This document shows positions 1,719-45,598 of a DNA stretch of 64,000 nt, piece after piece; position 1 is the stretch's first letter; each line of letters starts with the position of its first letter. Where the stretch lies: IMG/VR virus record IMGVR_UViG_3300042870_001240, one strand, 5' to 3'. This stretch comes from a virus. Its lineage: Duplodnaviria; Caudoviricetes. The notes under the pieces were generated by a model that saw only the letters and a list, made by a program, of their open reading frames with translations, was not told the DNA's origin and did not search any database. The position numbers and the translations under genes are program-made.

Positions 1719-3590
1719 TTACTTATTATTCACCTCTTCAAATTCGACATCGGAACCATTAAATTCCACATCACCTGTTTGGTCATTAACCTGGTCATAC
1801 AGGTCCTGTGAAATCTTTTGGAATTTTAGATTCACCTCATCAACTAATGATTTGGATAATTCTACGTCCTTTTTACTGTGAGCCTCTTTTAATTTTTCAA
1901 GAGTTGACGTTATCTCAGACTTTTGTTCTTCGGATATTTTACCTTCCAAATCAGTTAACGATTTTTCAACGTTAAAAATTGTGCTGTCTGCGATATTAAT
2001 TGCGTCAGCATCTTCTTTTGCTTTTTTATCAGACTCAGCATTAATTTCGGCCTCCTTTTTCATTTTTTCAATCTCCTCTTTAGATAATCCTGAAGAAGAT
2101 TCAATTCTAATTGATTGTTGTTTGTTTGTTGCTTTATCCATTGCCGAAACATTTATAATACCGTTAGTATCAATATCAAAAGTAACTTCAACTTGAGGAA
2201 CACCTCTCATCGCAGGTGGTAAGCCATCTAAATGGAATCTACCAATAGTTCGGTTATCTCTAACCATACTCCTTTCTCCCTGCAAAACGTGAATTTCAAC
2301 TGACGGTTGATTATCAACTGCCGTTGAGAATACCTGTGACTTCTTAGTTGGAATCGTGGTATTTGATTCAATTAGTTTTGTGAATACTCCACCCATTGTT
2401 TCAATACCCAAAGATAATGGTGTTACGTCTAATAACAATACATCTTTTACGTCTCCCGCTAATACACCACCTTGGATTGCCGCACCAAGAGCGACCACCT
2501 CATCAGGGTTAACTCCTTTTGAAGGTTCTTTACCAAAGAACTTTTTAACCGCATCTTGTATTGCCGGGATTCTTGTTGTTCCACCAACAAGGATAACCTC
2601 ATCAATATCAGAAACCTTAAGTTTTGCATTTTTCAATGCCGTTTTACAAGGTTCAATGGTTCTTTTAATTAAGTCGGCAGAAAGTTGTTCAAACTTTGCT
2701 CTCGTTAATGTTTTTACCAAGTGTTTTGGTCCAGTTGCATCGGCACTTAAATAAGGTAAGTTGATTTCTGTCTGAGGAGATGATGATAATTCAACCTTTG
2801 CTTTTTCAGCACCTTCTCTTAACCTTTGTAATGCCATAGCGTCTTTTGAGATATCTAAACCACCATTATCGTTCTTGAATTCCTCAACCAAGAAATCAAT
2901 AATGACTCTGTCAAAGTCATCACCACCTAAATGAGTATCCCCATCGGTAGATAATACCTCAAACACCCCATTACCAAGGTCTAATATAGATACGTCATGT
3001 GTACCACCTCCACAGTCAAATACAACGATTTTCATGTCTTTTGACATCTTATCAAGACCATACGCCAACGCCGCGGCGGTAGGTTCATTGATTATACGTC
3101 TAACAATTAATCCAGCAATTTCACCAGCTTCTTTAGTCGCTTGACGTTGTGCGTCGTTAAAATACGCAGGTACGGTAATAACCGCCTCAGTAACTTCAGT
3201 CCCCAAATAATCTTCAGCGGTTTGTTTCATCTTTTGAAGAATCATTGCCGAAATTTCTTGTGGTGAATACAATCTATCTTCTATAGATACTCTTGGTGTG
3301 TTCCCGTCACCTTTAACTAATTTATACGGAACTCTACCAACCTCACCTTTACTTTCGTCAAATGTTAAACCCATAAATCGTTTGATTGAGTAAACCGTTT
3401 TTTCAGGGTTTGTTACCGACTGTCTTTTTGCAGGGTCTCCGATTTTTCTTTCACCACCATTAATGAATCCAACAATTGAAGGGGTGGTTCTTTTTCCTTC
3501 ACTGTTTGTAATAACGACAGGTTCTCGTCCTTCCATGACCGTTACGCACGAATTTGTAGTTCCTAAATCTACTCCTATTATTTTTCCCAT
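1719..3590 (-). CDS. dnaK: Hsp70 chaperone DnaK
   Basis: [50 protein letters not shown]; full length, 623 aa. Confidence 0.98.
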
Positions 3591-7548: not shown

Positions 7549-9480
7549 TTATTTTATTTTTATTTTCATTTTAGTACCAATTTCATTCTTCTCACAAGTA
7601 ATCTTAAACTTATGTTCTTCCAAGATTGCGACACAAATATTTAACCCTAATCCAGTCCCAGATTCTTTTTGTCCTTCTTTTCTTGTATAAGGTTTGGATA
7701 AATAATTAAAATCGTCTTGAGTAATACCTCTACCGTTATCTTGTATGTAAATTGAATCCTCATCACCATATACCTTAACAAACTTTGTTTCGGAGTCGTT
7801 ATATTTTAAACCATTCCTAATTAGATTATCAACTGCGGTACAGAACAACGGTTCATTAAGTTCAATGGTTGGTAAATTATCGTCTAATATCACCTGACTT
7901 ATATAAGCCGTTGATGATAAATAATCTGCAAGAATATTTTTTACATTACATTCGGTCTTGTTTAATACCACATCTTTCTTAACTAGATTGGTAAACTCAT
8001 AAACCCCTTTATAAACTTTTTGTGAGTGTTTAAGACCTTCCTTAATCATTTTAAGTGGTGCCTCAATTTTAAGGTTAGTAATATCTTCTTGGGATAATCT
8101 CCTTTCTAATGAATTAACCCCTCTTGGTATATAAGTATTAATCCCTGAGTGCATATCATGTCTTAATATTTTAGCCGCGTGTTCTAAGTAGGTATTTTTC
8201 TTTTCAATTTCCTTCTTTTGTTCATAAGAAGTAGTAATGTCTGTAGCGATTTTCATAACACGATAAATCTTACCATCAGTACCAATAATAGGATTGTAAG
8301 TCGCCTGTAGATATACTAAAGACCCGTCTTTTTTGACTCTAACAATTTCACCTGAAAATAACTCACCATTATTTAATTTTTCCCAAAAAAGAGAATAGTC
8401 ATCGCTTTTCGAATATTCATCGTCAATAAAAATTCTGTGGTGTTTTCCGACAACCTCATCTTGTGACGAATATCCCATAGTACCTAAAAACAAGTCATTC
8501 GCAAAAATAATGTTACCTTCTAAATCAAATTCAATAACGGCATTAGATTTGTTTATCGCATTCATTCTATTCCGAATCTCCATCTCTTTTTTCTTAAGTT
8601 CCGTAACGTCTTGTCTAATTGATGAAAACCCGTCTAACTTACCATTCTTATCGAATTTTGCTTTGATGAATGTGTCAACGTAATATAATTCTCCTGATTT
8701 TCCTTTATTGGTAACAACGTCATTCCATATTTCACCATTCATTACCGTCTTATACATCTTACCCCAATAACCGTCAGGTTGTAATCCCGAATTAACAATA
8801 ATATGGTCCTTGCCTTTTACTTCGTCTAAAGACCATCCAGAAACTTCCTCAAATTTTTTATTAACGTAGGTTATTTTACCGTATTTATCAGCAACCGAAA
8901 CAATTGCGGCACTATTTAAAAAATTTTCAGTTTCTTTATTTATTCTCAATAAATCATTTCCTTCTTTAACTGAATAAGTAAAACTATAAAGAGATGATAA
9001 TAGTTGTGCAAAATCAACCTCAGAACTATCCCACTCTCTAAGTGTTAGTGACTCAATACAAATTACCCCAATGGTTTCCCCTTTATAAATAATAGGAACA
9101 TCTAACATAGATTTTACCCCAAGAGGTTTTAAATACGTTTCGGTAAAACAAGAAGTCGCTTGGTGTATTTCGGCATCATTTGCAATGATAATTGGGTTTT
9201 CTAATAACGCTAAGAAATAGGATTGGAAATCTTTTTTATAAAGTGTTATGTCTTGATACCAACTGTTTTCAGATTTAATATGTAATTGTTCACATATAAT
9301 TTCAGACTTATCTTCATTGTATAACCATATTGAACACCTATCGGCATTTATTGATTCCGTAACTTCTTTAGTTAATACTTTAGCACCTTCAGTTGTATTA
9401 CCTTCATAAAATAAAGGATTGTGTGATTGGGAGATAAGTACCTTATTTAATTTTTTAGTATAGTCAAGATGTTTTATCAT
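7549..9480 (-). CDS. Soluble GAF-PAS-PAS sensor histidine kinase
   Basis: GAF (ADRCSIW..LDVPI), two PAS domains (ITYVNKKF; IIFANDLF), H-box RHDM, N-box NLIRNGLKY, DNGRG, GTGLGL. Confidence 0.92.
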   Translation of the reverse strand: MIKHLDYTKKLNKVLISQSHNPLFYEGNTTEGAKVLTKEVTESINADRCSIWLYNEDKSEIICEQLHIKSENSWYQDITLYKKDFQSYFLALLENPIIIANDAEIHQATSCFTETYLKPLGVKSMLDVPIIYKGETIGVICIESLTLREWDSSEVDFAQLLSSLYSFTYSVKEGNDLLRINKETENFLNSAAIVSVADKYGKITYVNKKFEEVSGWSLDEVKGKDHIIVNSGLQPDGYWGKMYKTVMNGEIWNDVVTNKGKSGELYYVDTFIKAKFDKNGKLDGFSSIRQDVTELKKKEMEIRNRMNAINKSNAVIEFDLEGNIIFANDLFLGTMGYSSQDEVVGKHHRIFIDDEYSKSDDYSLFWEKLNNGELFSGEIVRVKKDGSLVYLQATYNPIIGTDGKIYRVMKIATDITTSYEQKKEIEKKNTYLEHAAKILRHDMHSGINTYIPRGVNSLERRLSQEDITNLKIEAPLKMIKEGLKHSQKVYKGVYEFTNLVKKDVVLNKTECNVKNILADYLSSTAYISQVILDDNLPTIELNEPLFCTAVDNLIRNGLKYNDSETKFVKVYGDEDSIYIQDNGRGITQDDFNYLSKPYTRKEGQKESGTGLGLNICVAILEEHKFKITCEKNEIGTKMKIKIK

Positions 9481-35258: not shown

Positions 35259-35540
35259 TTATTTTTCGTCAGAGAACTCAATATAAACACTAATTGTATT
35301 TTCAATACCAATTGATTTAATCGTATCCCTAATTAAAGATTTAATATCTTCCCAATACTCACGACCGTTCTTAAGAAATGTATTACTATCAATTATCAAA
35401 AAAACATTATACACAATATTACGTTTTTTGTCTGTATAAAAACTCCGAGGATTCATTTCACTGGTAACCTCAACATCCTCGAACTCAGGATATTTCTCAT
35501 CCAAGACATATTTAACAATTTTTTTAATGTAATCTTCCAT
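35259..35540 (-). CDS. Hypothetical protein
   Basis: TATTTAT upstream. Confidence 0.7.
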   Translation of the reverse strand: MEDYIKKIVKYVLDEKYPEFEDVEVTSEMNPRSFYTDKKRNIVYNVFLIIDSNTFLKNGREYWEDIKSLIRDTIKSIGIENTISVYIEFSDEK

Positions 35541-35566
35541 AGTAATAAATATTATGTATTAGTATT

Positions 35567-36106
35567 TTAGATGGTAACATCATCTTTATGAGCAAGAACC
35601 TCTTCCACCCCCTCAATATCCTCTAAATAAGCACAACTAGTTGTATTTACCTTACAATTAAGAACCTCTTCAACCTTCAGTTGGCTATACGCCCATCCTA
35701 CGACAGTTGTGGTTACCTTACAGTTGAGGACCTCTTCCACCTGGCAATCTCCATTAAAATAGCCACACCGCGTTGTATTTACCTTACAGTTGAGGACCTC
35801 TTCCACCACTAGAGCGCGTGCTCGATTTATTACCAGCGTTGTATTTACCTTACAGTTGAGGACCTCTTCCACCCATTCGGACATAATCTTATCAAAATCA
35901 GGAGATTCCAAAGAAAAGAGAACAAAAAAACTCTTAAAGAAATCATATCTCCACCATAACTTACCCTCATTTTCATATTCAAAATACCAATACTTATTAT
36001 CTCTATCGATAAAGTATACACTGTCCTTATAAGAAATTATCTCGACCTTGGATAACTCCTTATAAAGTTTTTTGAATATAATATCTTTTAATCTATCTGA
36101 AACCAT
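35567..36106 (-). CDS. Repeat-array protein A: conserved N-terminal domain plus VEEVLNCKVNTT + 10 variable aa units
   Basis: Start MVSDRL after a TATATTTG promoter; paralog of 41453, 41993 and 52900. Confidence 0.85.
   Translation of the reverse strand: MVSDRLKDIIFKKLYKELSKVEIISYKDSVYFIDRDNKYWYFEYENEGKLWWRYDFFKSFFVLFSLESPDFDKIMSEWVEEVLNCKVNTTLVINRARALVVEEVLNCKVNTTRCGYFNGDCQVEEVLNCKVTTTVVGWAYSQLKVEEVLNCKVNTTSCAYLEDIEGVEEVLAHKDDVTI
35594..35873 (-). repeat. In-frame array A: 36-nt repeats with 30-nt unique spacers
   Basis: Repeats at 35838-35873, 35772-35807 (identical), 35706-35741, 35640-35675 and a partial ending at 35609; period exactly 66. Confidence 0.95.
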
Positions 36107-36154
36107 ATTACAAATATAATAATAATAAATGAAATAAAAAATAAAGAACACATC

Positions 36155-36463
36155 TTAACATTCATCGTTATTAAAATCCCAATATTCCATTATCCTTATT
36201 CTGAAGTTTTTCTTAACATATTCAATTAGATATTCTTCCATCTTTGAATATCCATCATCTTCCTCATTTTCAAAATAATGATATAGATAAGTCTTAGCCG
36301 TTGTTAAACATACATAATCATAATACTCTTGAAAATTATCGAAATTACAGATGAACTCATCCACCCCCTCATCAACAATGTCCCATATTAAATCAAAATC
36401 TTCCTCAACCCTCCTGAGAACATATATCAACATATTCTGTTGTTCAGTTATAATGTATTTCAT
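36155..36463 (-). CDS. MKYIITE leader-family protein
   Basis: Leader motif. Confidence 0.75.
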   Translation of the reverse strand: MKYIITEQQNMLIYVLRRVEEDFDLIWDIVDEGVDEFICNFDNFQEYYDYVCLTTAKTYLYHYFENEEDDGYSKMEEYLIEYVKKNFRIRIMEYWDFNNDEC

Positions 36464-36549
36464 ATGTTATGTATTAGTTTATACATAAATATACACATAA
36501 ATAAAAAACCCCACCTATAACAGATGGGGGGTTATATATAAGATATTTT

Positions 36550-37170
36550 TTATAAAAACTCCATCAAAATCTTCGCATCCTCAGACACAAGACGTTTTGT
36601 GTTGTTCTGAAGCAAATCAAATGATTCAAATGAAAACGGACTATCACCAACCCTTGTCATAAATTCAGATTCAACATGAGGCTTAAATTTACCCATCTTC
36701 TCAATCTTACCATATCCAGGATACTCAGAATTATTTGTCCCAATAAGATAATTGTTATCACCACCCTTCTCAATAATCATAACACTATCCTGACAAAATA
36801 ACTCACCAAGCTTGGTCATATTCGAAATAAAATTAGAATCGTCTTTAATATTAACAACAAAGAAACTTTCCTCATTAACCTCAATGGCGTTTTGCTCAGC
36901 AAAATTTTCAATATACGTTCCCTTAACTTTTGTAACACCATAACCAAGATACAATAAAGCAGATTTTAAATGACGATTCCTATTCTTGTTTATCCGAATA
37001 TTAACATATCCCTTGTCATCATCACCACCCAAACAATTTGTTAGACTTTTTCTATATGATGTTATAATCGAACATTCATGCTTTATCAAATGATTATACA
37101 CACGATTAATAGATGATTCATTTAATAATAAAGAAAATCGACTCATTAGGTCTCTCATTTGTTGACTCAT
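36550..37170 (-). CDS. Conserved phage protein (DUF3293-like) with LLNE leader
   Basis: ESSINRV..H....IITSYR..N..L...L...GYG..V.G.Y.E..E.SFFV..QDSV pattern. Confidence 0.65.
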   Translation of the reverse strand: MSQQMRDLMSRFSLLLNESSINRVYNHLIKHECSIITSYRKSLTNCLGGDDDKGYVNIRINKNRNRHLKSALLYLGYGVTKVKGTYIENFAEQNAIEVNEESFFVVNIKDDSNFISNMTKLGELFCQDSVMIIEKGGDNNYLIGTNNSEYPGYGKIEKMGKFKPHVESEFMTRVGDSPFSFESFDLLQNNTKRLVSEDAKILMEFL

Positions 37171-37216
37171 AGAATAAAAATATATTAATAAATACAAAGT
37201 TAATCAATATTTCAGA

Positions 37217-37275
37217 TTTTTCCCAAAAATTTTTTTTTATATATAGGGAACAATTTAGAACAGGGGGTCATGTTC
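37217..37275. repeat. ~60-bp imperfect repeat also present at 39224-39282
   Basis: tttttccc/agaaattt...atatag.gaaca.tt.aaaca.ggggtc.tgtt in both places. Confidence 0.65.
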
Positions 37276-37302
37276 TTAAAATGATAGGTGGTGCACTTAA
37301 AT

Positions 37303-37397
37303 AAAAGGGGGCGGGGGGATTGACCACGACCGAAGGGAGTTCGGACGGTCTGGACTTATATTAAATAAAAACCCCCACCTGTATTAGAAAGTGGGGG
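37303..37397. repeat. ~95-bp structured intergenic repeat, copy 2
   Basis: 40-nt core identical to copy 1. Confidence 0.85.
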
Positions 37398-37466
37398 TTA
37401 TTTAAAAAAGTGGGGGTCGTGTTTATAGGAAATAAAAAACCCCTCTGTTGGGAGGGGTAATATTAT

Positions 37467-37892
37467 TTACAGTTTATAATACTTACTAGCCGATTCGTTA
37501 TCAGGGTCAATTGGAATAGGTAATTCTTTACCTATTGTTTTATCGGGATAAGAAATTTTTACTTTTGATACGAAATTTTTATAAGCCTCCGCAAAGTCAC
37601 CACCACCGACACTAACAAGTACTCTACCTGAACCATCTCTTAAATCTATATATCTATCTTTTCCTGGCCCCAACATGTAAACACAAGATTTAAAACCAGG
37701 GGTTTCAACACCAGTACCATATGTTCCTGTCATATTATTACACAATGGTTTATTATATGTCGGTTTTAAAGTTGTATTATTAGGAGTGGCTCCCGTTGTA
37801 GTTTGGGTTGTAACTTGTTCATTTAACAATCGGTTCTCCAATCTTTGATTGGATTCCTGAATGTGTCTTATCTTACTGTAACTTTTGTTCAT
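37467..37892 (-). CDS. MNKSYSKIRHIQESNQRLE.RLLNEQ leader-family protein
   Basis: Leader plus TATTTAT. Confidence 0.75.
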   Translation of the reverse strand: MNKSYSKIRHIQESNQRLENRLLNEQVTTQTTTGATPNNTTLKPTYNKPLCNNMTGTYGTGVETPGFKSCVYMLGPGKDRYIDLRDGSGRVLVSVGGGDFAEAYKNFVSKVKISYPDKTIGKELPIPIDPDNESASKYYKL

Positions 37893-38084
37893 GGTATTTT
37901 AGTTTATATATAAATATCACATATAACAAAAAACCCCACCTAAAAATATTTCGATTAAAAGTTGACAGTATAAAAAATAATTCGTAATATTTTGTTGTTG
38001 TTGGTTAACATAAAACCATCTCGTCAAACCCAACGGTTAGACCAATGTGGTCGAGGGTAATTATAAACAATTAAAACTTAAAAA

Positions 38085-39188
38085 ATGAAAAAGTTTAGAG
38101 TACGAATGACTAATGTTTCGACAAGATTAGTTGATGGTGAAACACAAAAATGGCTGACATGTGAGGTGTCACTATCTTCCCTAATAGAAGCAAAAAGAAA
38201 ACTAGGGAAAGAATTATTTTCCGTAAATGTTAGAGGATGTTTATCTAACAGTAAACCAACAAGTCAAGAAAGGAAAAAACCTGTATTCAGAGGTATAATG
38301 AATACAATGGACAAGATAAGAAAAAACCCTGAAAAAGCTTATCTGCAAACTATGGGAAATAATGGTTGTACGATAATGTGTGGTTCTATTGAAAGAATAT
38401 CTGGTGATATCTATGAAATCACATTAACCCATGATTACCATGGAATTGGTAACGGTCAACAAACGATTTATATAACCGAGTGGATTGATACAAATTATCC
38501 AATAAGTAGTGATGTAACCATACTATGTAAAATGGCCATTGGACTTTCAGAGGATGACTGTAACGACATATGTAAGGCAAATAACACAAGTAACAAAATC
38601 GATAAGAAAGATATCAAATCCATAGAGTGGAAAAGAATAAGTATGGAACTTAAAACATTGGGTATAACTTTCAATTATAAAAAAGAAAAAGAAGGTCAAT
38701 ACCATATCGACATCTGTGCTGAAAATTACTATAATATGATTGGGGCATATTTCACAAACAAACCTTGGGTAAACGGCCAAGAAGTGGTCGATAAAATTAA
38801 ACCTAACATCATATCAGGAAAAGAGATGATTGAAATGGATAGGGTAAAGAAAATAATTGATGATTGGTTTGAAACCAATGATAATGAGGTTAAAAAACAT
38901 AGTAATAAAATGGATACTACAAGAATGGGTTATTTAAAGAACATTATGATTTCATTATACACGGATGTTAAGATACAAGCAAGAGTAAAACCATTTATAA
39001 AAAAATACGGAGATGTTAAATTTTTTGAACTAATCTTTAAAGTTGTTATAAACACCATAGAAGAAAACGAAACAACTAAAGTATCGTCAAATTATTTTAA
39101 TAAAAAAACATACGAATTATTAAGTAAATCTATTGAAGTAGAAATTTTAGAATCAGAAATTTTAAAATCAGAAACGGTCTTAGTTTAA
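38085..39188 (+). CDS. AIPR-like (ParB/Srx-fold) protein
   Basis: LFSVNVRG, NNGCTI, IGNGQQT, NNTSNKI..KD motifs in AIPR order. Confidence 0.7.
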   Translation: MKKFRVRMTNVSTRLVDGETQKWLTCEVSLSSLIEAKRKLGKELFSVNVRGCLSNSKPTSQERKKPVFRGIMNTMDKIRKNPEKAYLQTMGNNGCTIMCGSIERISGDIYEITLTHDYHGIGNGQQTIYITEWIDTNYPISSDVTILCKMAIGLSEDDCNDICKANNTSNKIDKKDIKSIEWKRISMELKTLGITFNYKKEKEGQYHIDICAENYYNMIGAYFTNKPWVNGQEVVDKIKPNIISGKEMIEMDRVKKIIDDWFETNDNEVKKHSNKMDTTRMGYLKNIMISLYTDVKIQARVKPFIKKYGDVKFFELIFKVVINTIEENETTKVSSNYFNKKTYELLSKSIEVEILESEILKSETVLV

Positions 39189-39391
39189 TTGTAATAAATT
39201 TCCCCCTAACTAATATAGGGGAATTTTTCCAGAAATTTTATTTTACATATAGAGAACATTTTAAAACAAGGGGTCGTGTTTCTATATACATGGGGGAATT
39301 TTTCCAAAAATTTCTATAAACATTTTTTCATACAAATATTTCATTTAAGGGATTATCCCCCCTTTTGACACCCCAAAAACCACTATATGGA

Positions 39392-39416
39392 GGGGGGATA
39401 CGGGGGAGGGAGGGGG
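39392..39416 (+). other. G-quadruplex-forming motif
   Basis: GGGGGG-ATAC-GGGGG-A-GGG-A-GGGGG. Confidence 0.7.
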
Positions 39417-39603
39417 TACCTACCCCATATAGGGGGGTATAGAGGGGACCTCCCCCCATAAACGAGACGGGACACTATAGGGTCCTCCCCTGTCTGTAAT
39501 CTAATGTATGTGGGTGATGTAATTTTGATGACATATACAAGTAATGTTATTAACATGACATAATGACATTGTTAATAAGATTTGTTAATGGGGGAATAAT
39601 ATA

Positions 39604-39635
39604 TTTGTGTATGTTGGGGATTGTATGTATCTTTG
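39604..39635 (+). promoter_or_regulatory. Bacteroidota sigma70-type promoter
   Basis: TTTG (39604-39607)-N20-TATCTTTG (39628-39635). Confidence 0.75.
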
Positions 39636-39640
39636 TATTG

Positions 39641-39775
39641 TCAGTGGTTAAGTCCGAGACGGGTTCGACAAGGGGGTTGTCGCAGAGGGTGTACTCCAAC
39701 CTGCTTATATGTTTACTTAAAACCAAACCATAAGGCAGGCTGGAGTATACTCGGTCCCCATCTTCTGAATGGTCA
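39641..39775. ncRNA. Candidate structured RNA between convergent promoters
   Basis: CGACAA-GGGGG-TTGTCG (39666-39682) and a ~21-bp stem pairing 39687-39708 with 39730-39752. Confidence 0.55.
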
Positions 39776-39780
39776 CAACA

Positions 39781-39812
39781 CAAAGATACAAAAAAGATTT
39801 GATAGATACAAA
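39781..39812 (-). promoter_or_regulatory. Bacteroidota sigma70-type promoter facing the 39604 promoter
   Basis: On the minus strand, TTTG (39812-39809)-N20-TATCTTTG (39788-39781). Confidence 0.75.
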
Positions 39813-39847
39813 TTGTTTATTTAGAATATTATCCCTATCTTCGTATA

Positions 39848-40285
39848 ATGTTTATACAACTTATATCACATATAGAGAATCGGATTAAGTATAACAACTA
39901 CTCATCCGTGATTAATTTAACCAACAAGGAACGTAGGGACCTTGCCAAGTTCTGTCTTGAATATTGTATTGAAGTTATCGGTCAACCTAAGAAGAAAGGA
40001 ATCCCCAAGTTCAATATCGTTAAGACCAAGAAACCTTATTATGGGGAATATGTTAGCGAACATGAAAAGATATGCGTATTTTATAATCAATGTAAAACCA
40101 TTGGCACCTTCATCAGCACATTCATTCATGAATATACCCACCATACCCAAAACCTTAATAAGTATGATAAGGTATTATCCAAAGTTGGGTATGATAATCA
40201 CCCCAAAGAGATTGAAGCAAACAACATGGCAAAGTTATATAAACAACCATGCCTTGAAGCATTCCGTAAATCAATCCAATATTAA
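39848..40285 (+). CDS. HExxH metallopeptidase-like protein
   Basis: FIHEYTHHTQ...HPKEIEAN. Confidence 0.7.
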   Translation: MFIQLISHIENRIKYNNYSSVINLTNKERRDLAKFCLEYCIEVIGQPKKKGIPKFNIVKTKKPYYGEYVSEHEKICVFYNQCKTIGTFISTFIHEYTHHTQNLNKYDKVLSKVGYDNHPKEIEANNMAKLYKQPCLEAFRKSIQY

Positions 40286-40593
40286 ATTATCCCCCTAACA
40301 TGTTCCCGTATCACCTGTAACGAATGTTCCCTAATATACATCTGTAAATCATTATGGTCATCACTAGATAATGGATACTCCTTATGGATATACTCTATCA
40401 CATCCCCCATGTCAGTCTCCGTTAATAACAATACAGATTGGGGTTGAAGTCTACTCATCCCACTTTTTCCAACATACTTACACGTCCCCTCAAATAAACC
40501 ATGACCATATGTCACAATATAACACCCATCACTCTCCGTGATGACCGTTGAAAACTTTTTTAGTACACTTTCGTACATCTCTTTTCTACCCAT
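40282..40593 (-). CDS. Hypothetical protein
   Basis: ORF track. Confidence 0.6.
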   Translation of the reverse strand: MGRKEMYESVLKKFSTVITESDGCYIVTYGHGLFEGTCKYVGKSGMSRLQPQSVLLLTETDMGDVIEYIHKEYPLSSDDHNDLQMYIREHSLQVIREHVRGII

Positions 40594-40662
40594 AATTGTT
40601 GATAACTTTTTTTATAAATCCCTCCTGACACTATGACAGAGGGGAATTGTTGATAACTTTTT
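40594..40662. repeat. Two AATTGTTGATAACTTTT repeats (DnaA-box-like) flanking a TGACA box
   Basis: At 40594 and 40645; TTATCAACA is one mismatch from TTATCCACA. Confidence 0.6.
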
Positions 40663-40907
40663 ATTAAATAAATATGTTAAAATATTTGGAATTGTCATTT
40701 TGTCAGTCACGCTTGACAATGGGGATAATCCCCCTCACCACCTTTTTTATATATTTTTTCCCACCTTTTCCCACCGATAATGGTCATAATAATATTGTAA
40801 TGTCACTTTTTTCCCTCTGTAGGGGTCTACAAGACCAATAAATTCACTATAGGTAAATCCCAGCTAATTATGTTCTTAAGAGTACACTAAGCGGTGAAAC
40901 ACGTAGT

Positions 40908-40980
40908 GTGTTAGAAACTAACACCCGATTACCATGAGATGTGTTAGAAACTAACACTTGATTTTCATGAGATGTGTTAG
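40908..40980. repeat. Iteron-like 33-bp tandem repeat with the palindrome GTGTTAG-AAA-CTAACAC
   Basis: Units start at 40908, 40941 and 40974 (partial). Confidence 0.85.
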
Positions 40981-41132
40981 GATAATATCTTCAACGACCA
41001 CTTTAGTGGGACATTATACTCCCCACCATAATGACATACCATAACAAATTATAGGTAAGTTCTTTTAATAGTTAAAGAGAAACATCATTTATGATGAACA
41101 TGGTAACTACCATATAACTAACTCTATGGGAA

Positions 41133-41183
41133 TATAAGGTTATAACCTTATAATCACCCATTATAAGGTCCTGACCTTATAAT
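41133..41183. promoter_or_regulatory. Two tandem palindromes TATAAGGT-N4-ACCTTATA
   Basis: 41133-41152 (perfect 20-bp palindrome) and 41162-41181. Confidence 0.8.
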
Positions 41184-41452
41184 TTGATTATCTCATCTAT
41201 ACAATATTTTTCCACCATAACAATTTACCAATATGTCACCATAACAATGGGGAAATTATATGTAATGACGTATACCTTACTGTTGCACCCTCATATTTAA
41301 TATGTATCTACATATAATGGGGACCTGATATAAATGGGGGAATATGATTATGAAGGAATACCGTAGTGAATGAAATGAACGGGAGGGATGAGTGAGTAAT
41401 TATATTCTCTCATTTATTGTATAACTAAAATATTATTATTATCTTTGTGATT

Positions 41453-41989
41453 ATGGTTAGTGGTAGATTAAAGGATTTGATATTTAAGAAACTGTATAAA
41501 GATTTATCTCATGTAGAAATTATTGAGTATAAGGGTGAGATATGGTTTATTGATAGAAAGGAAAAGTTTTGGTATTTTATATATACTAAGTCTAATGGTC
41601 AGATGTGGTGGAGATATTCTTTCTTTACTCCTTTCTTTCTTCTTTTCTCTTTACCCTCTGATGAATTTACTCACATTCTTTCTTCTTGGGTGGAAGAGGT
41701 CTTAAATTGTAAGGTGACCACAACACTCAAGGTGGCTAATGTTAGGGAAGTTATGGTGGAAGAGGTCTTAAATTGTAAGGTGACTGAAACAGAAACCGTT
41801 ATTAATGGCTACCCCCTATCGGTGGAAGAGGTCCTAAATTGTAGGGTGACTACAACAATGGTGTCTATTGCTTCTTTACCAAAATCGGTGGAAGATGTCC
41901 TAAATTGTAGGGTGACTACAACAATGATAGACAGAGGTATTCCACGTCATGAGGTGGAAGAGGTTTTAAATAATAATATAAATAAATAA
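41453..41989 (+). CDS. Repeat-array protein B
   Basis: Same N-terminal domain as protein A; TATCTTTG promoter at 41440-41447. Confidence 0.85.
   Translation: MVSGRLKDLIFKKLYKDLSHVEIIEYKGEIWFIDRKEKFWYFIYTKSNGQMWWRYSFFTPFFLLFSLPSDEFTHILSSWVEEVLNCKVTTTLKVANVREVMVEEVLNCKVTETETVINGYPLSVEEVLNCRVTTTMVSIASLPKSVEDVLNCRVTTTMIDRGIPRHEVEEVLNNNINK
41689..41974 (+). repeat. In-frame array B: 36-nt repeats with 30-nt spacers
   Basis: Repeats start at 41689, 41755, 41821, 41887 and 41953 (partial); period 66. Confidence 0.95.
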
Positions 41990-41992
41990 GAT

Positions 41993-42688
41993 ATGGTTAG
42001 TGATAGATTAAAGGATTTGATATTTAAGAAACTGTATAAAGATTTATCTCGTGTAGAGATTATTCATTATAAAACTTATATATGGTTTATCGATAGAGAG
42101 GATAAGTGTTGGTATTTCAGGTATGATAAATCTGACGGCACACTCTTATGGAGATATTATTTCTTCATGGATTTTTTTACCCTCTTTACGATGAGTTCCA
42201 TCGAATTTGTTCCCATCATATCTTCTTGGGTGGAACAGGTTATAAATAATAAGGTAACTATAACTCGCAACAAGATGACTTCATTTCCAGACGATATTGA
42301 AGATGCCTTAAATTGTAAAATGGTGGAAGAGGTAATAAATCATAAGGTTTCATTCGACTTAGGATATTCCATTTCTACCCTTTGTGAGGTGGAAGATGTC
42401 CTAAATCATAAGGTAACTAAACCAGATGGTGTCATTGCACTATATAATCCGATTGAAGAGCATCATAAGGTGGGATTAACTTTAGGACCTTCCCTTCCCC
42501 AATATGAAATGGTGGATGAGGTCCTAAATCATAAGGTAACTAAAACAGATGGAGCGATTGCATGGAGCGGTCCGATAGAAGAGGCTCTAAATAATAAGGT
42601 AAATACGACCGAAGATGAAATAGATAACAACATACGTGACCACCTCCTCAACCTTCAGCTGGCTATACGCCCATCCTACGACAGGTGA
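41993..42688 (+). CDS. Repeat-array protein C (degenerate units)
   Basis: Repeat starts at 42229, 42295, 42322, 42388, 42451, 42511, 42574; the tail is an inverted copy of an array A unit. Confidence 0.85.
   Translation: MVSDRLKDLIFKKLYKDLSRVEIIHYKTYIWFIDREDKCWYFRYDKSDGTLLWRYYFFMDFFTLFTMSSIEFVPIISSWVEQVINNKVTITRNKMTSFPDDIEDALNCKMVEEVINHKVSFDLGYSISTLCEVEDVLNHKVTKPDGVIALYNPIEEHHKVGLTLGPSLPQYEMVDEVLNHKVTKTDGAIAWSGPIEEALNNKVNTTEDEIDNNIRDHLLNLQLAIRPSYDR
42642..42687 (+). repeat. 43/46-nt copy of 35664-35709, antisense to its host gene
   Basis: acctc[c/t]tcaaccttcag[c/t]tggctatacgcccatcctacgacag[g/t]tg. Confidence 0.95.
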
Positions 42689-42693
42689 AGATT

Positions 42694-43437
42694 TTAAACC
42701 ATATTAACTTTATTTTGCCATAACCCAAAAAAATCAGAATTTTTTATTACAATAGACCAACGCTCTATTTCTGATTTTCGATTTGACATATCTATTTCTT
42801 TTCTTGATGATGATGGTAGTTTAATTATGGTAGATAATTCGGAACTTGATAATTTAACATTTGGTGTTAAAAATATTTGTCTCCACATATAAAGGTCACT
42901 CCAAATATTTTTTGGTGCAGGTCTCCATCCAAACTTTAATTTTCTGTATAAATCCATTGTATGGGATGCTCCTGTTAAACTAATTTCATTTTGTTTAGGT
43001 TTTAAGTGATAATCAACCCATTTTTTATCTTTTAAATTAACCCTTGAAACCGTTAAGATATTATTTGGATATACTAAAACAGGTAATGGATGTGTAAAAT
43101 CACTATCAACTAACATATCTCTCATTACCTCAACATGTTTAGATAGTAAAAGGTCATCATCCCCAAGATAAGTAACTATGTCTGATTTTGATTCTGAAAC
43201 TATTCTATGTCTTGCAACTTCATTTCGACTTATTCTTTTTGGCTCATCCTCAAATCTAACTCTATTATCAGTTTTAATTATATCACTAATAACATCTCTT
43301 GTGTCATCAGTAACACCATCACCAATGATTACAATATCCAAATTATCAACCGTTTGGTTTTGAGCACTCTCAACTGAATATTTAAGTGTTGTGGGGTGAT
43401 TATGTGTCGGTATAACCACCATTACAGAATTTGACAT
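42694..43437 (-). CDS. Glycosyltransferase family 2
   Basis: VVIPTHNH..L..SV.SA..Q, IIGDG, YLGDDD. Confidence 0.85.
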   Translation of the reverse strand: MSNSVMVVIPTHNHPTTLKYSVESAQNQTVDNLDIVIIGDGVTDDTRDVISDIIKTDNRVRFEDEPKRISRNEVARHRIVSESKSDIVTYLGDDDLLLSKHVEVMRDMLVDSDFTHPLPVLVYPNNILTVSRVNLKDKKWVDYHLKPKQNEISLTGASHTMDLYRKLKFGWRPAPKNIWSDLYMWRQIFLTPNVKLSSSELSTIIKLPSSSRKEIDMSNRKSEIERWSIVIKNSDFFGLWQNKVNMV

Positions 43438-44005: not shown

Positions 44006-45598
44006 TTAGTTAAGATAATTTAAATCTTCATCCTCTTCTAACCCATTGTAGGCGTAAGTTTGGAAGTTAGCGTTTGTATCAACCCAAGCCATTGACCTGA
44101 ATGTAACACCATCATTAATCCTAAGTTTCTCTATCTCTAATTGTTTTAACTTATGATGTAATTCTTTTTTTATAAGTTGGATTTCTTTATCTTTGGAGTA
44201 TGCTAAATTTTCTGATTCATCGGTATCATTAATTAAATCATATAATTCATACTGAGTCTCGTAACTATTTAATGCGTCAAAATAATAAGTATACTTCCAT
44301 CCTTTAGTACGAATGGTTCTTAATCTATTACAAGTTTTAACTGATGACGATAAATTGTTTGACCCTGATTTAGTATCATCAAATGTGAATAGGATTTCAT
44401 TTTGTGCTGGTTCGTTATTCTCGATAATTGGTAGTAAGTTTACACCTCTACAATCAGATGGAACAGGAAGATTAACAAAATTAGATAACGTTGGTAATAT
44501 ATCAATTAACGTAGCAAGTTCGTGGGATGATTTATGTTTCAATGTTGTTGGAAATACAACAGGGTTTGATATGACCATTGGTATTCTAATTGCTTCCTCA
44601 TAAGCAACGAACGCTTTTTGTCTCATTCCACCATGTGACATTCCCATTTCTCCATGGTCTGCCAATCTAATAACGATGGCATCATTTGCCAAGTTAATAC
44701 CATCTTCTTTATTATATAGAACATCAATTACTTTACCTATCTCACCATCAATCTTTTTAAGTAGGAACGCATAAAAGTTTAAGTAATCTAACTTCATATC
44801 ATCATTCTTTAATACCCCTAATAGACCATCTGCGGCAATATTTGTTTGGAATTGGGCAATAGGTTTTGCGTTTTCTATTAAATTTTCATTCACAGTTGTT
44901 GGTAGATTTGGAATGTCTCTTCCTGTATAGTCAGGCTCATTATATCCATACTGTATTGAGTTTGGATATCCTAACACATCATGCGGATTAACTAAACTTA
45001 ACACTATACAATATGGTTGCATGTCACCATTTTTTCTTCTAACTTTAACTTGTTCAAGATATTCCATGGTCTGTTCGATATACATGGCATCATGATTGGC
45101 AAATCCTCCACCAAAATTTTCGGGTTTCGCGTCTTCGCCAGCGTCAGGACCAACCCATCCTTTAAATCCAAATAGTGCTATGTCTTTTGCTAATGGGTCA
45201 CCACCATCGGTGCCCTTACTAAGATGCCATTTTCCTCTGTATTGAACATCATAACCAATACCATCCAATATTCTTCCTATATTTGGTGTTTGGTTATTTA
45301 ATTGTGGTTCTACAGGTGAAAAAACACCTCCTGATGTTAATGTTTGTGTTACTTGATGTTGAGCAGGATAAGTTCCTGTGAACAATGTTGAGCGGCTAGG
45401 AGAACACATACAACTGTTACAAAAAGCTCTTTCAAAACTAAATCCATTTTCTTTTAAAAAGGTTAGTGTTGGTAGATTTTCTTTTTCCCAATTGTCAGGA
45501 AAATGTTGTGTGGCTCTTTCTTGGTCGGTGATGATAAATATAATATCTGGTTGAGTAGGTAACTCAGATAAATTTTGTTTAAAGTTATTTTGTTTCAT
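44006..45598 (-). CDS. Cys-type (formylglycine-dependent) sulfatase
   Basis: IFIITDQ, CSPSRSTLFTG, GKWH, DHGEM, YEE.IRIP; no signal peptide. Confidence 0.92.
   Translation of the reverse strand: MKQNNFKQNLSELPTQPDIIFIITDQERATQHFPDNWEKENLPTLTFLKENGFSFERAFCNSCMCSPSRSTLFTGTYPAQHQVTQTLTSGGVFSPVEPQLNNQTPNIGRILDGIGYDVQYRGKWHLSKGTDGGDPLAKDIALFGFKGWVGPDAGEDAKPENFGGGFANHDAMYIEQTMEYLEQVKVRRKNGDMQPYCIVLSLVNPHDVLGYPNSIQYGYNEPDYTGRDIPNLPTTVNENLIENAKPIAQFQTNIAADGLLGVLKNDDMKLDYLNFYAFLLKKIDGEIGKVIDVLYNKEDGINLANDAIVIRLADHGEMGMSHGGMRQKAFVAYEEAIRIPMVISNPVVFPTTLKHKSSHELATLIDILPTLSNFVNLPVPSDCRGVNLLPIIENNEPAQNEILFTFDDTKSGSNNLSSSVKTCNRLRTIRTKGWKYTYYFDALNSYETQYELYDLINDTDESENLAYSKDKEIQLIKKELHHKLKQLEIEKLRINDGVTFRSMAWVDTNANFQTYAYNGLEEDEDLNYLN

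Follow-up and report, generated by a model that had tools for sequence, protein, structure and literature searches.

We consider it likely that the 3' end of a repeat-bearing gene in a lake-water phage arose by a single, exact copying event, in which a short piece of one coding array was transferred at the level of microhomology to an ectopic site in the tail of a paralog and then became fixed in part of the phage population. The window analysed here (the whole stretch of 64,000 nucleotides of viral DNA) carries three related genes: A (35567-36106, minus strand, 179 aa), B (41453-41989, plus strand, 178 aa) and C (41993-42688, plus strand, 231 aa). The recipient is gene C, in which positions 42642-42684 (plus strand; hereafter the patch) constitute a 43-nt exact copy of the type of A-array allele found in a relative, L082, and run antisense to the gene. 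Taken by itself the patch is ordinary, being one illegitimate copying event. Its value lies in what it records. One array unit is frozen in it as a copy that can be dated, and this provides a time stamp in a family whose regular arrays gain and lose whole cassettes.

The three genes share a common plan, with an N-domain of ~79 residues followed by a run of 22-residue units, and each unit is encoded by a 36-nt repeat (VEEVLNCKVTTT) and an unrelated 30-nt spacer. In gene A, delineated from its ORF and a split into units, a 78-aa N-domain is followed by four 22-aa units (36-nt repeat plus 30-nt spacer) and a degenerate terminal repeat; the exact protein is encoded on 14 contigs. Gene B retains a regular array and served as our population marker for cassette turnover. 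Gene C has eroded repeats, and its inter-unit indels are all multiples of 3. The N-domains of B and C give a dN/dS of 0.26, a value that applies to the B-C pair only. The family comprises 999 proteins at E <=1e-3, whose lengths step by 22 residues, and is present in multiple copies in related phages of 195-294 kb. No family in Pfam or PHROG matched it, and we found no paper on it in the literature. An AlphaFold2 model is moderately confident for residues 1-86 (pLDDT ~78) and renders the repeat region as disordered (pLDDT ~30). Foldseek returned no match in the PDB at E <0.001, and the best hit of a wide structure search with VIA, at Z 5.5, lay within noise, so that the family is left without an assigned fold.

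The resemblance between the A array and the C tail was correctly described in the earlier note on this DNA, and it is statistically secure. As reported there, 42642-42687 matches 35664-35709 at 43 of 46 positions on the plus strand, and we recovered the pair as a 46-nt direct repeat of 93% identity. The donor-type unit in array A (35664-35709, minus strand) does consist of one full spacer with parts of both flanking repeats: spacer 3 (35676-35705; peptide VVGWAYSQLK), the first 12 nt of the next, variant repeat (35664-35675 in plus-strand coordinates) and 4 nt of the preceding repeat. The 30-nt spacer core has only two exact occurrences in the window, at 35676-35705 and 42654-42683, and 100 dinucleotide-preserving shuffles put the chance expectation at 0.00 matches even with up to three mismatches permitted. 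A lies on the minus strand and C on the plus strand, so that the A-derived piece is antisense in C, as had been claimed. Read in C, it ends in DHLLNLQLAIRPSYDR followed by the stop, and it thereby gives the gene its final 15 residues and, indirectly, its stop codon. The observation that the piece begins about one spacer after the last forward repeat also holds. That repeat occupies 42574-42609, a 30-nt spacer follows at 42610-42639, and the match runs from 42642, an onset 32 nt past C's last forward repeat.

Comparison of C orthologs from phages with 97-99% identical flanks reveals three forms of the tail. The antisense unit (form Y) is present in the window, P0121 and L080/P0122; a 57-nt segment with a degenerate forward repeat and its own stop (form X) occurs in L036/P0096 and P0123; and L081/P0127 and P0128 have a plain terminal repeat that ends in GEDFKPY and a stop. 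Forms Y and X are identical on both sides, with a spacer coding EDEIDNNIR on the left and the 24-nt end of a terminal repeat on the right. In the window, the left side corresponds to 42574-42641 (plus strand), made up of the last forward repeat (42574-42609) and last forward spacer of C (peptide EDEIDNNIRD), which the L036 alignment shows to be common to patch-less C orthologs. The right side is the conserved flank at 42684-42707 (plus strand), 24 nt that represent the end of the ancestral terminal repeat; L081 reads it in frame as GEDFKPY and a stop, and in L036 the same reading lies beyond an earlier stop. Equal flanks with differing contents mean that the patch is an insertion or replacement in C, and not the remnant of an adjoining array. 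Specifically, 12 nt from the start of a repeat, inverted, are followed in it by a 30-nt inverted spacer and 1 further nt, and in the window its reading frame does not agree with that of the conserved GEDFKPY ending. Because the patch shifts the frame, a TGA at 42686-42688 terminates gene C.

A join of this kind might also be produced by an assembly chimera at ~42640, as the earlier note cautioned. Beyond the oddity of the junction itself, nothing speaks for such an artefact, and we assign it a negligible probability. Gene C has the same bases in 12 contigs, which come from separate assemblies of three data sources (JGI, ENA and NCBI) and so refute the chimera, and the same junction recurs in the more diverged L080. 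Furthermore, 34 blocks of the collection contain the exact gene C protein, and 24 lake-water DNA runs contain 89-99% of sampled words from 35400-43000. The patch is invariant wherever it is present, at 12 C loci and in L080 (13 loci), and it is fixed in this part of a population whose surrounding DNA is 97-99% identical. It also persists without its donor spacer: L080 keeps the identical patch, but its A array consists of three unrelated spacers. Given that the A array of L080 has been wholly replaced, the patch there is a fossil, and its survival indicates that the regular arrays turn over much faster than the DNA around them.

The direction of transfer is from A to C. The match extends 11-12 nt into the variant A repeat that lies beyond the spacer, which starts GTTGA and not GTGGA; this variant start, GTTGAGGAGGT, belongs to the A unit after spacer 3 and is included in the 43-nt identity with L082. 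Extension into so specific a repeat identifies the source as the A array, and not a foreign protospacer or other sequence shared by both genes. One could suppose instead that a foreign 30-nt sequence was taken up twice, by each array on its own and in opposite orientations, and the foreign composition of the spacers would agree with such a history. However, this reading is very improbable given the identity within the variant repeat, and the C copy has no flanking forward repeats and is out of register. Nor did an external source of A spacer 3 emerge from IMG/VR or the GTDB representative genomes, where its exact word had 0 matches; three matches in metagenomes were all to A arrays.

The C tail is identical to the A allele of L082 (protein P0090) over 43 consecutive bases, 42642-42684. 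At 42647 and 42659, two of the three mismatched positions, the window's own A array differs from both L082 A and the C tail. On the coding strand of A each difference is a G-to-A change at a third codon position (GAG to GAA and CAG to CAA) that leaves the amino acid unchanged. The L014 A allele independently carries the C-tail base (C) at 42659. The remaining mismatch, at 42685, falls within the right flank and is common to patch-less C orthologs. These comparisons show that the copy was exact when made and that the donor array drifted later; the patch preserves the older allele of A spacer 3.

These same positions had been the basis for a hint at retrohoming by a diversity-generating retroelement (DGR), with adenine mutagenesis between A as the template and C as the variable region. 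The description behind that hint was accurate, since the mismatches at 42647, 42659 and 42685 all stand opposite adenines of A's coding strand, and there is a superficial likeness to a DGR in that a template-like copy is accompanied by a second copy at a gene's 3' end, with mismatches that at first sight face adenines. However, the bias dissolves in the light of L082, which has the C-tail bases at 42647 and 42659; there it is the window's A array that differs, by synonymous third-position changes, and the third site proves to be recipient flank shared with patch-less orthologs. What is left shows no adenine-specific variation, is exact to a natural donor allele and does not vary among strains. 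Moreover, the search for a reverse transcriptase, a recombinase or a Cas1-like gene that the earlier note had recommended came back empty. Specifically, 51 proteins scanned against Pfam (50 of the 54 window ORFs of at least 150 aa, plus gene A) contained no reverse transcriptase, recombinase, integrase, invertase or Cas domain at Pfam sensitivity within the 64-kb window, and five records of related phages, 195-294 kb long and including one rated 100% complete, yielded neither Cas1 nor a reverse transcriptase (RVT_1). We therefore take the hint to be refuted and regard DGR-like retrohoming as extremely improbable.

For the event itself, we propose that a 43-nt piece of the A array, comprising one spacer and 11-12 nt of the next repeat, was copied into the 3' end of C in the same plus orientation. 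A and C are inverted paralogs 7 kb apart, so a piece copied in this way comes to lie antisense in C. It took the place of what lay between the last spacer of C and the end of that gene's terminal repeat, and by shifting the reading frame it created a new 15-residue tail and a new stop. The two synonymous G-to-A substitutions arose later in the window's A array. The route may have been a template switch during replication, possibly a double one, or another form of illegitimate joining of the microhomology or end-joining type.

We infer this copying mechanism from the junctions alone. Compared with the patch-less L036 and L081, the left junction has ~3 nt of homology (ACC, present twice in the product) and the right ~2 nt (AG); L036 and the window differ at the left junction by one base and the 3-nt ACC repeat, and the breakpoints, and with them the amount of microhomology, are uncertain by a few bases. 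Homology of 2-3 nt fits template switching or illegitimate recombination, and the longer CCTCAAC/CTTCAAC microhomology invoked previously is not needed. Homologous exchange between repeats is disfavoured because it would preserve orientation and register, and a spacer integrase is disfavoured because it would insert 30 nt and duplicate a repeat. We also considered homologous repeat-mediated exchange, a site-specific invertase and retrohoming against the junctions themselves, and each is a poor fit to 2-3 nt of homology.

Ectopic gene conversion and microhomology-mediated template switching between dispersed repeats are familiar from FoSTeS/MMBIR-type events and from illegitimate recombination. 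The C tail resembles such events in being a short, exact inter-paralog patch with 2-3 nt of junction identity, in which the recipient sequence was replaced once and the result then inherited. It differs in that the partners are inverted, CRISPR-shaped coding arrays, that the patch is antisense and read as protein, and that the mechanism is deduced from junctions only. There is one counterpoint to a purely random accident: the repeat is semi-palindromic, and the patch was placed where the next repeat would begin, an arrangement that may point to a process guided by the repeat. The patch itself is probably without function, and the tail contains neither a terminator nor an unusual RNA fold (z = +0.72).

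Transfer between paralogs is real but rare. We surveyed 279 spacers, taken from 59 distinct family genes on ~45 phage contigs, against both strands of all the DNA collected, and the patch was the only copy in antisense. Of 204 family proteins, only the three form-Y C orthologs have HLLN, the peptide signature of an inverted repeat. The survey did yield one further inter-paralog share, in sense orientation. At L003:840-1900, the last spacers of two adjacent paralogs are 96% identical over 27 nt (THMYNNGEIW and THMYTNGEIQ) beside N-domains that have diverged. This share, which is a counterpoint to the uniqueness of the patch, represents either a second exchange between paralogs or retained ancestry. 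Accordingly, the proposal that units move between paralogs stands as far as the movement is concerned, given the A-to-C copy with its variant-repeat flank and the sense share in L003. For the recurrent, shufflon-like mechanism attached to it we find no support, given one antisense case in 279 spacers and a patch that is fixed.

Shufflons and other invertible cassettes (Rci-type, Min/Gin/Hin) resemble this locus in having an inverted segment at a gene's 3' end and partly palindromic flanking repeats. However, we found no recombinase here, there is one segment in one orientation, and the donor is still in place, as is expected of a copy and not of an inversion in situ. The C tail has a single orientation in all contigs that carry the patch, and we saw no inversion of the A-C interval, with the same gene order in all contigs that span both genes. 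At the level of contigs, then, there is no sign of a shufflon. A different form of transfer is known from silent-cassette conversion at pilE/pilS and vlsE, in which segments move recurrently and in sense orientation into an expression site. The likeness is that short segments pass between paralogous loci; the difference is that here we see one antisense transfer, fixed in part of a population. For this gene family, then, both the DGR and the shufflon leads are removed.

The regular arrays, by contrast with the fixed patch, change by whole cassettes. Like CRISPR arrays, the A orthologs fall into an order: P0097, P0090 and L014 have the two most distal spacers in common; the following pair, to which the donor spacer belongs, is found in P0090, L014 and the window; and the N-domain-proximal spacers are strain-specific, with the two oldest lost in the window lineage. 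Spacer 3 occupies an equal relative position in the A orthologs L013, L015, L014, L082/P0090 and P0066. In gene B, unit 3 is lost in L020 and L026 and its spacer wholly replaced in L025, all in genes that are otherwise identical, and every allele, P0002 and P0007 among them, retains the distal spacer MIDRGIPRHE. The segments concerned in the window are 35594-35873 for A and 41689-41989 for B, where the arrays differ by whole cassettes among phages with 97-99% identical flanks. Mosaic A arrays occur in L014, L082 and L080.

The same polarity is found across the family. Among 120 family proteins, 198 pairs (which are not independent of one another) share spacers partially; 127 of them share only the last and 22 only the first. 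Repeats decay in the same direction, with mean mismatches to the first repeat that rise from 2.0 to 12.7 toward the terminal repeat. Spacers of related arrays are either 27-30/30 identical or match at 15/30 or fewer positions, with no intermediates. Their GC content is 42% and flat over codon positions, compared with 29% in the N-domain and 32% in stop-free 30-mers of phage DNA. None of 160 non-redundant spacers contains an in-frame stop, whereas the other frames have 4-10% stop codons, and the 66-nt period holds in 249 of 255 intervals from 65 arrays, the exceptions being mostly multiples of three. As judged from these patterns, the arrays appear to be translated frames under selection. This constitutes population-level evidence that translated arrays of 36 + 30 nt evolve in a CRISPR-like manner while being held in frame as protein, and it bears on the question of what writes them.

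Spacers of the wrong length do arise, and most are purged except where the error is a multiple of three. For example, P0066 has a 3-nt insertion inside A spacer 3 (VVGWAYSRQLK), and the ends of P0143 and P0156 are the repeat read in a shifted frame (e.g. GRGSQLQGKHN). A second subfamily, with the N-domain start MKYLITESQ and the repeat VENTLQMKVT, is encoded at L005:1000-1500 on the minus strand. Its first spacer is 31 nt long, which shifts the frame and ends the ORF, and three more 66-nt units follow downstream that are stop-free in their own frame. This locus is either a fresh frameshift allele or an array that is kept without translation.

The type VI-B (Cas13b) arrays of Bacteroidota have 36-bp repeats and 30-bp spacers (PMC13187072). 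Arrays A and B resemble CRISPR arrays, and the VI-B type in particular, in geometry, polarised turnover, a decaying repeat at the trailer end, all-or-none spacer differences and foreign spacer composition. Of the features by which CRISPR arrays are recognized, we found regular 36-nt direct repeats with unique 30-nt spacers, and a polarity in which one end gains spacers while the trailer end keeps its own and closes with a degenerate repeat; we found no associated cas genes among the window ORFs or, for Cas1, in the five related phage records. A further difference from CRISPR is that the arrays are translated, stop-free and in frame. The array repeat has no match to any CRISPR-DR family of Rfam at E up to 10, and the repeat pattern is absent from the GTDB representative genomes. 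The commonest repeat variants of the family (L001-L081) fold so that their ends pair in a 5-bp stem (GTGGA...TCCAC), next to which come AAC and, further in, a small hairpin; the window's A repeat lacks most of this stem. The stem is either selected at the RNA level or a consequence of the V-E and S/T-T codons.

Exact words from other spacers also returned little. Those of A spacer 1 and B spacer 1 had 0 matches in IMG/VR, and that of B spacer 2 had 0 in GTDB genomes. A 20-nt word from A spacer 1 had one match in a Hydrogenophaga MAG, which extends over 21 nt only and is at chance level. Multi-core RiPP precursors offer another comparison, with a conserved leader and variable cores set between constant flanks. 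For the present family this may be no closer than an analogy, and we saw no maturation enzymes near its genes.

Given these CRISPR-like properties, it is appropriate to ask whether the machinery that adds cassettes also wrote the patch. This could be a CRISPR-type integrase, perhaps the host's, or some phage enzyme, acting for example by excision of a unit and its reverse re-integration at the trailer end. On this view the patch would be a visible instance of units being moved repeatedly by an enzyme. Several observations favour such a writer, including the conservation of distal spacers and variability of proximal ones (127 versus 22 of the 198 pairs), the decay of repeats away from the N-domain, spacers that are 27-30/30 identical or unrelated, a spacer GC content of 42% that is flat over codons against 29-32% in phage DNA, and the onset of the patch about one spacer length after the last forward repeat. 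However, a 43-nt patch with a partial repeat is unlike the product of a spacer integrase; it is non-canonical as a CRISPR spacer insertion both in this composition and in its location at the trailer end, whereas turnover occurs at the N-domain end. No repeat was duplicated, the 66-nt register and the frame were broken, no Cas1 was found in five related phage records, and the case is a single one in our survey. We accord this explanation little probability.

A role for the patch as RNA is also doubtful, and we rate it as distinctly unlikely. Under this alternative, the 3' end of the C transcript would pair with a transcript or guide from the A array and act as a sponge, an anti-tag decoy or an antisense regulator. 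The potential for pairing is substantial, at 43 nt and perfect in L082-type strains, with a perfect stretch of 25 nt in the window, and the complementarity reaches into the repeat-derived part in the manner of an anti-tag. The array geometry of 36 + 30 nt is that of type VI-B (PMC13187072), and the patch is unchanged in 12 contigs and L080. This constancy, however, is uninformative in a population that is 97-99% identical, and L080, which has the patch without a matching A spacer, indicates that the partner is dispensable. Sister strains do without the patch, which is 1 of 279 spacers in being antisense; no local RNA structure or terminator was found in the tail, no cas gene in the window or relatives and no Rfam match to a CRISPR repeat.

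These two possibilities can be joined in a broader one, which we consider unlikely: a CRISPR-type spacer integrase, probably of host origin, would write the arrays by acting on a gene for a phage protein, and the C tail would be either a rare off-pathway product of that enzyme, by reverse re-insertion of an excised unit, or a selected anti-tag or sponge for guides made from array A. If this were true, the patch would be the first trace, in a translated CRISPR-like system, of units that move from one array to another.

Some further observations concern the family and its genome more generally. JGI gene calls (L016, L017, L019, L021, L022 and L024) omit A and B, yet call the eroded C. The regular arrays were probably masked as CRISPR ahead of gene calling, and because of such masking the family is likely to be under-represented in protein databases. 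INPHARED contained no megablast match to the window, and its distant mode gave chance matches only, none of them within an array. The genome is that of a large, AT-rich phage (~31% GC) from lake-water metagenomes. Within 41413-41452, directly before the start codon of gene B, there is a TAnnTTTG-type motif (TATCTTTG) that is also found upstream of other genes, and which we take to be the Bacteroidota-type -7 promoter element. The motif suggests a Bacteroidota host; a host search with the phage sulfatase as query found no relative. The gene content of the window includes DnaK, thymidylate synthase, SAM lyase and glycosyltransferases. It encodes a full-length Hsp70/DnaK (1719-3590), as well as a GAF-PAS histidine kinase (7549-9480), SAM lyase (36550-37197), an AIPR-family protein (38085-39188) and the sulfatase (44006-45598), an auxiliary gene set that is typical of very large phages. 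The sulfatase adjoins sugar-modifying enzymes in the window.
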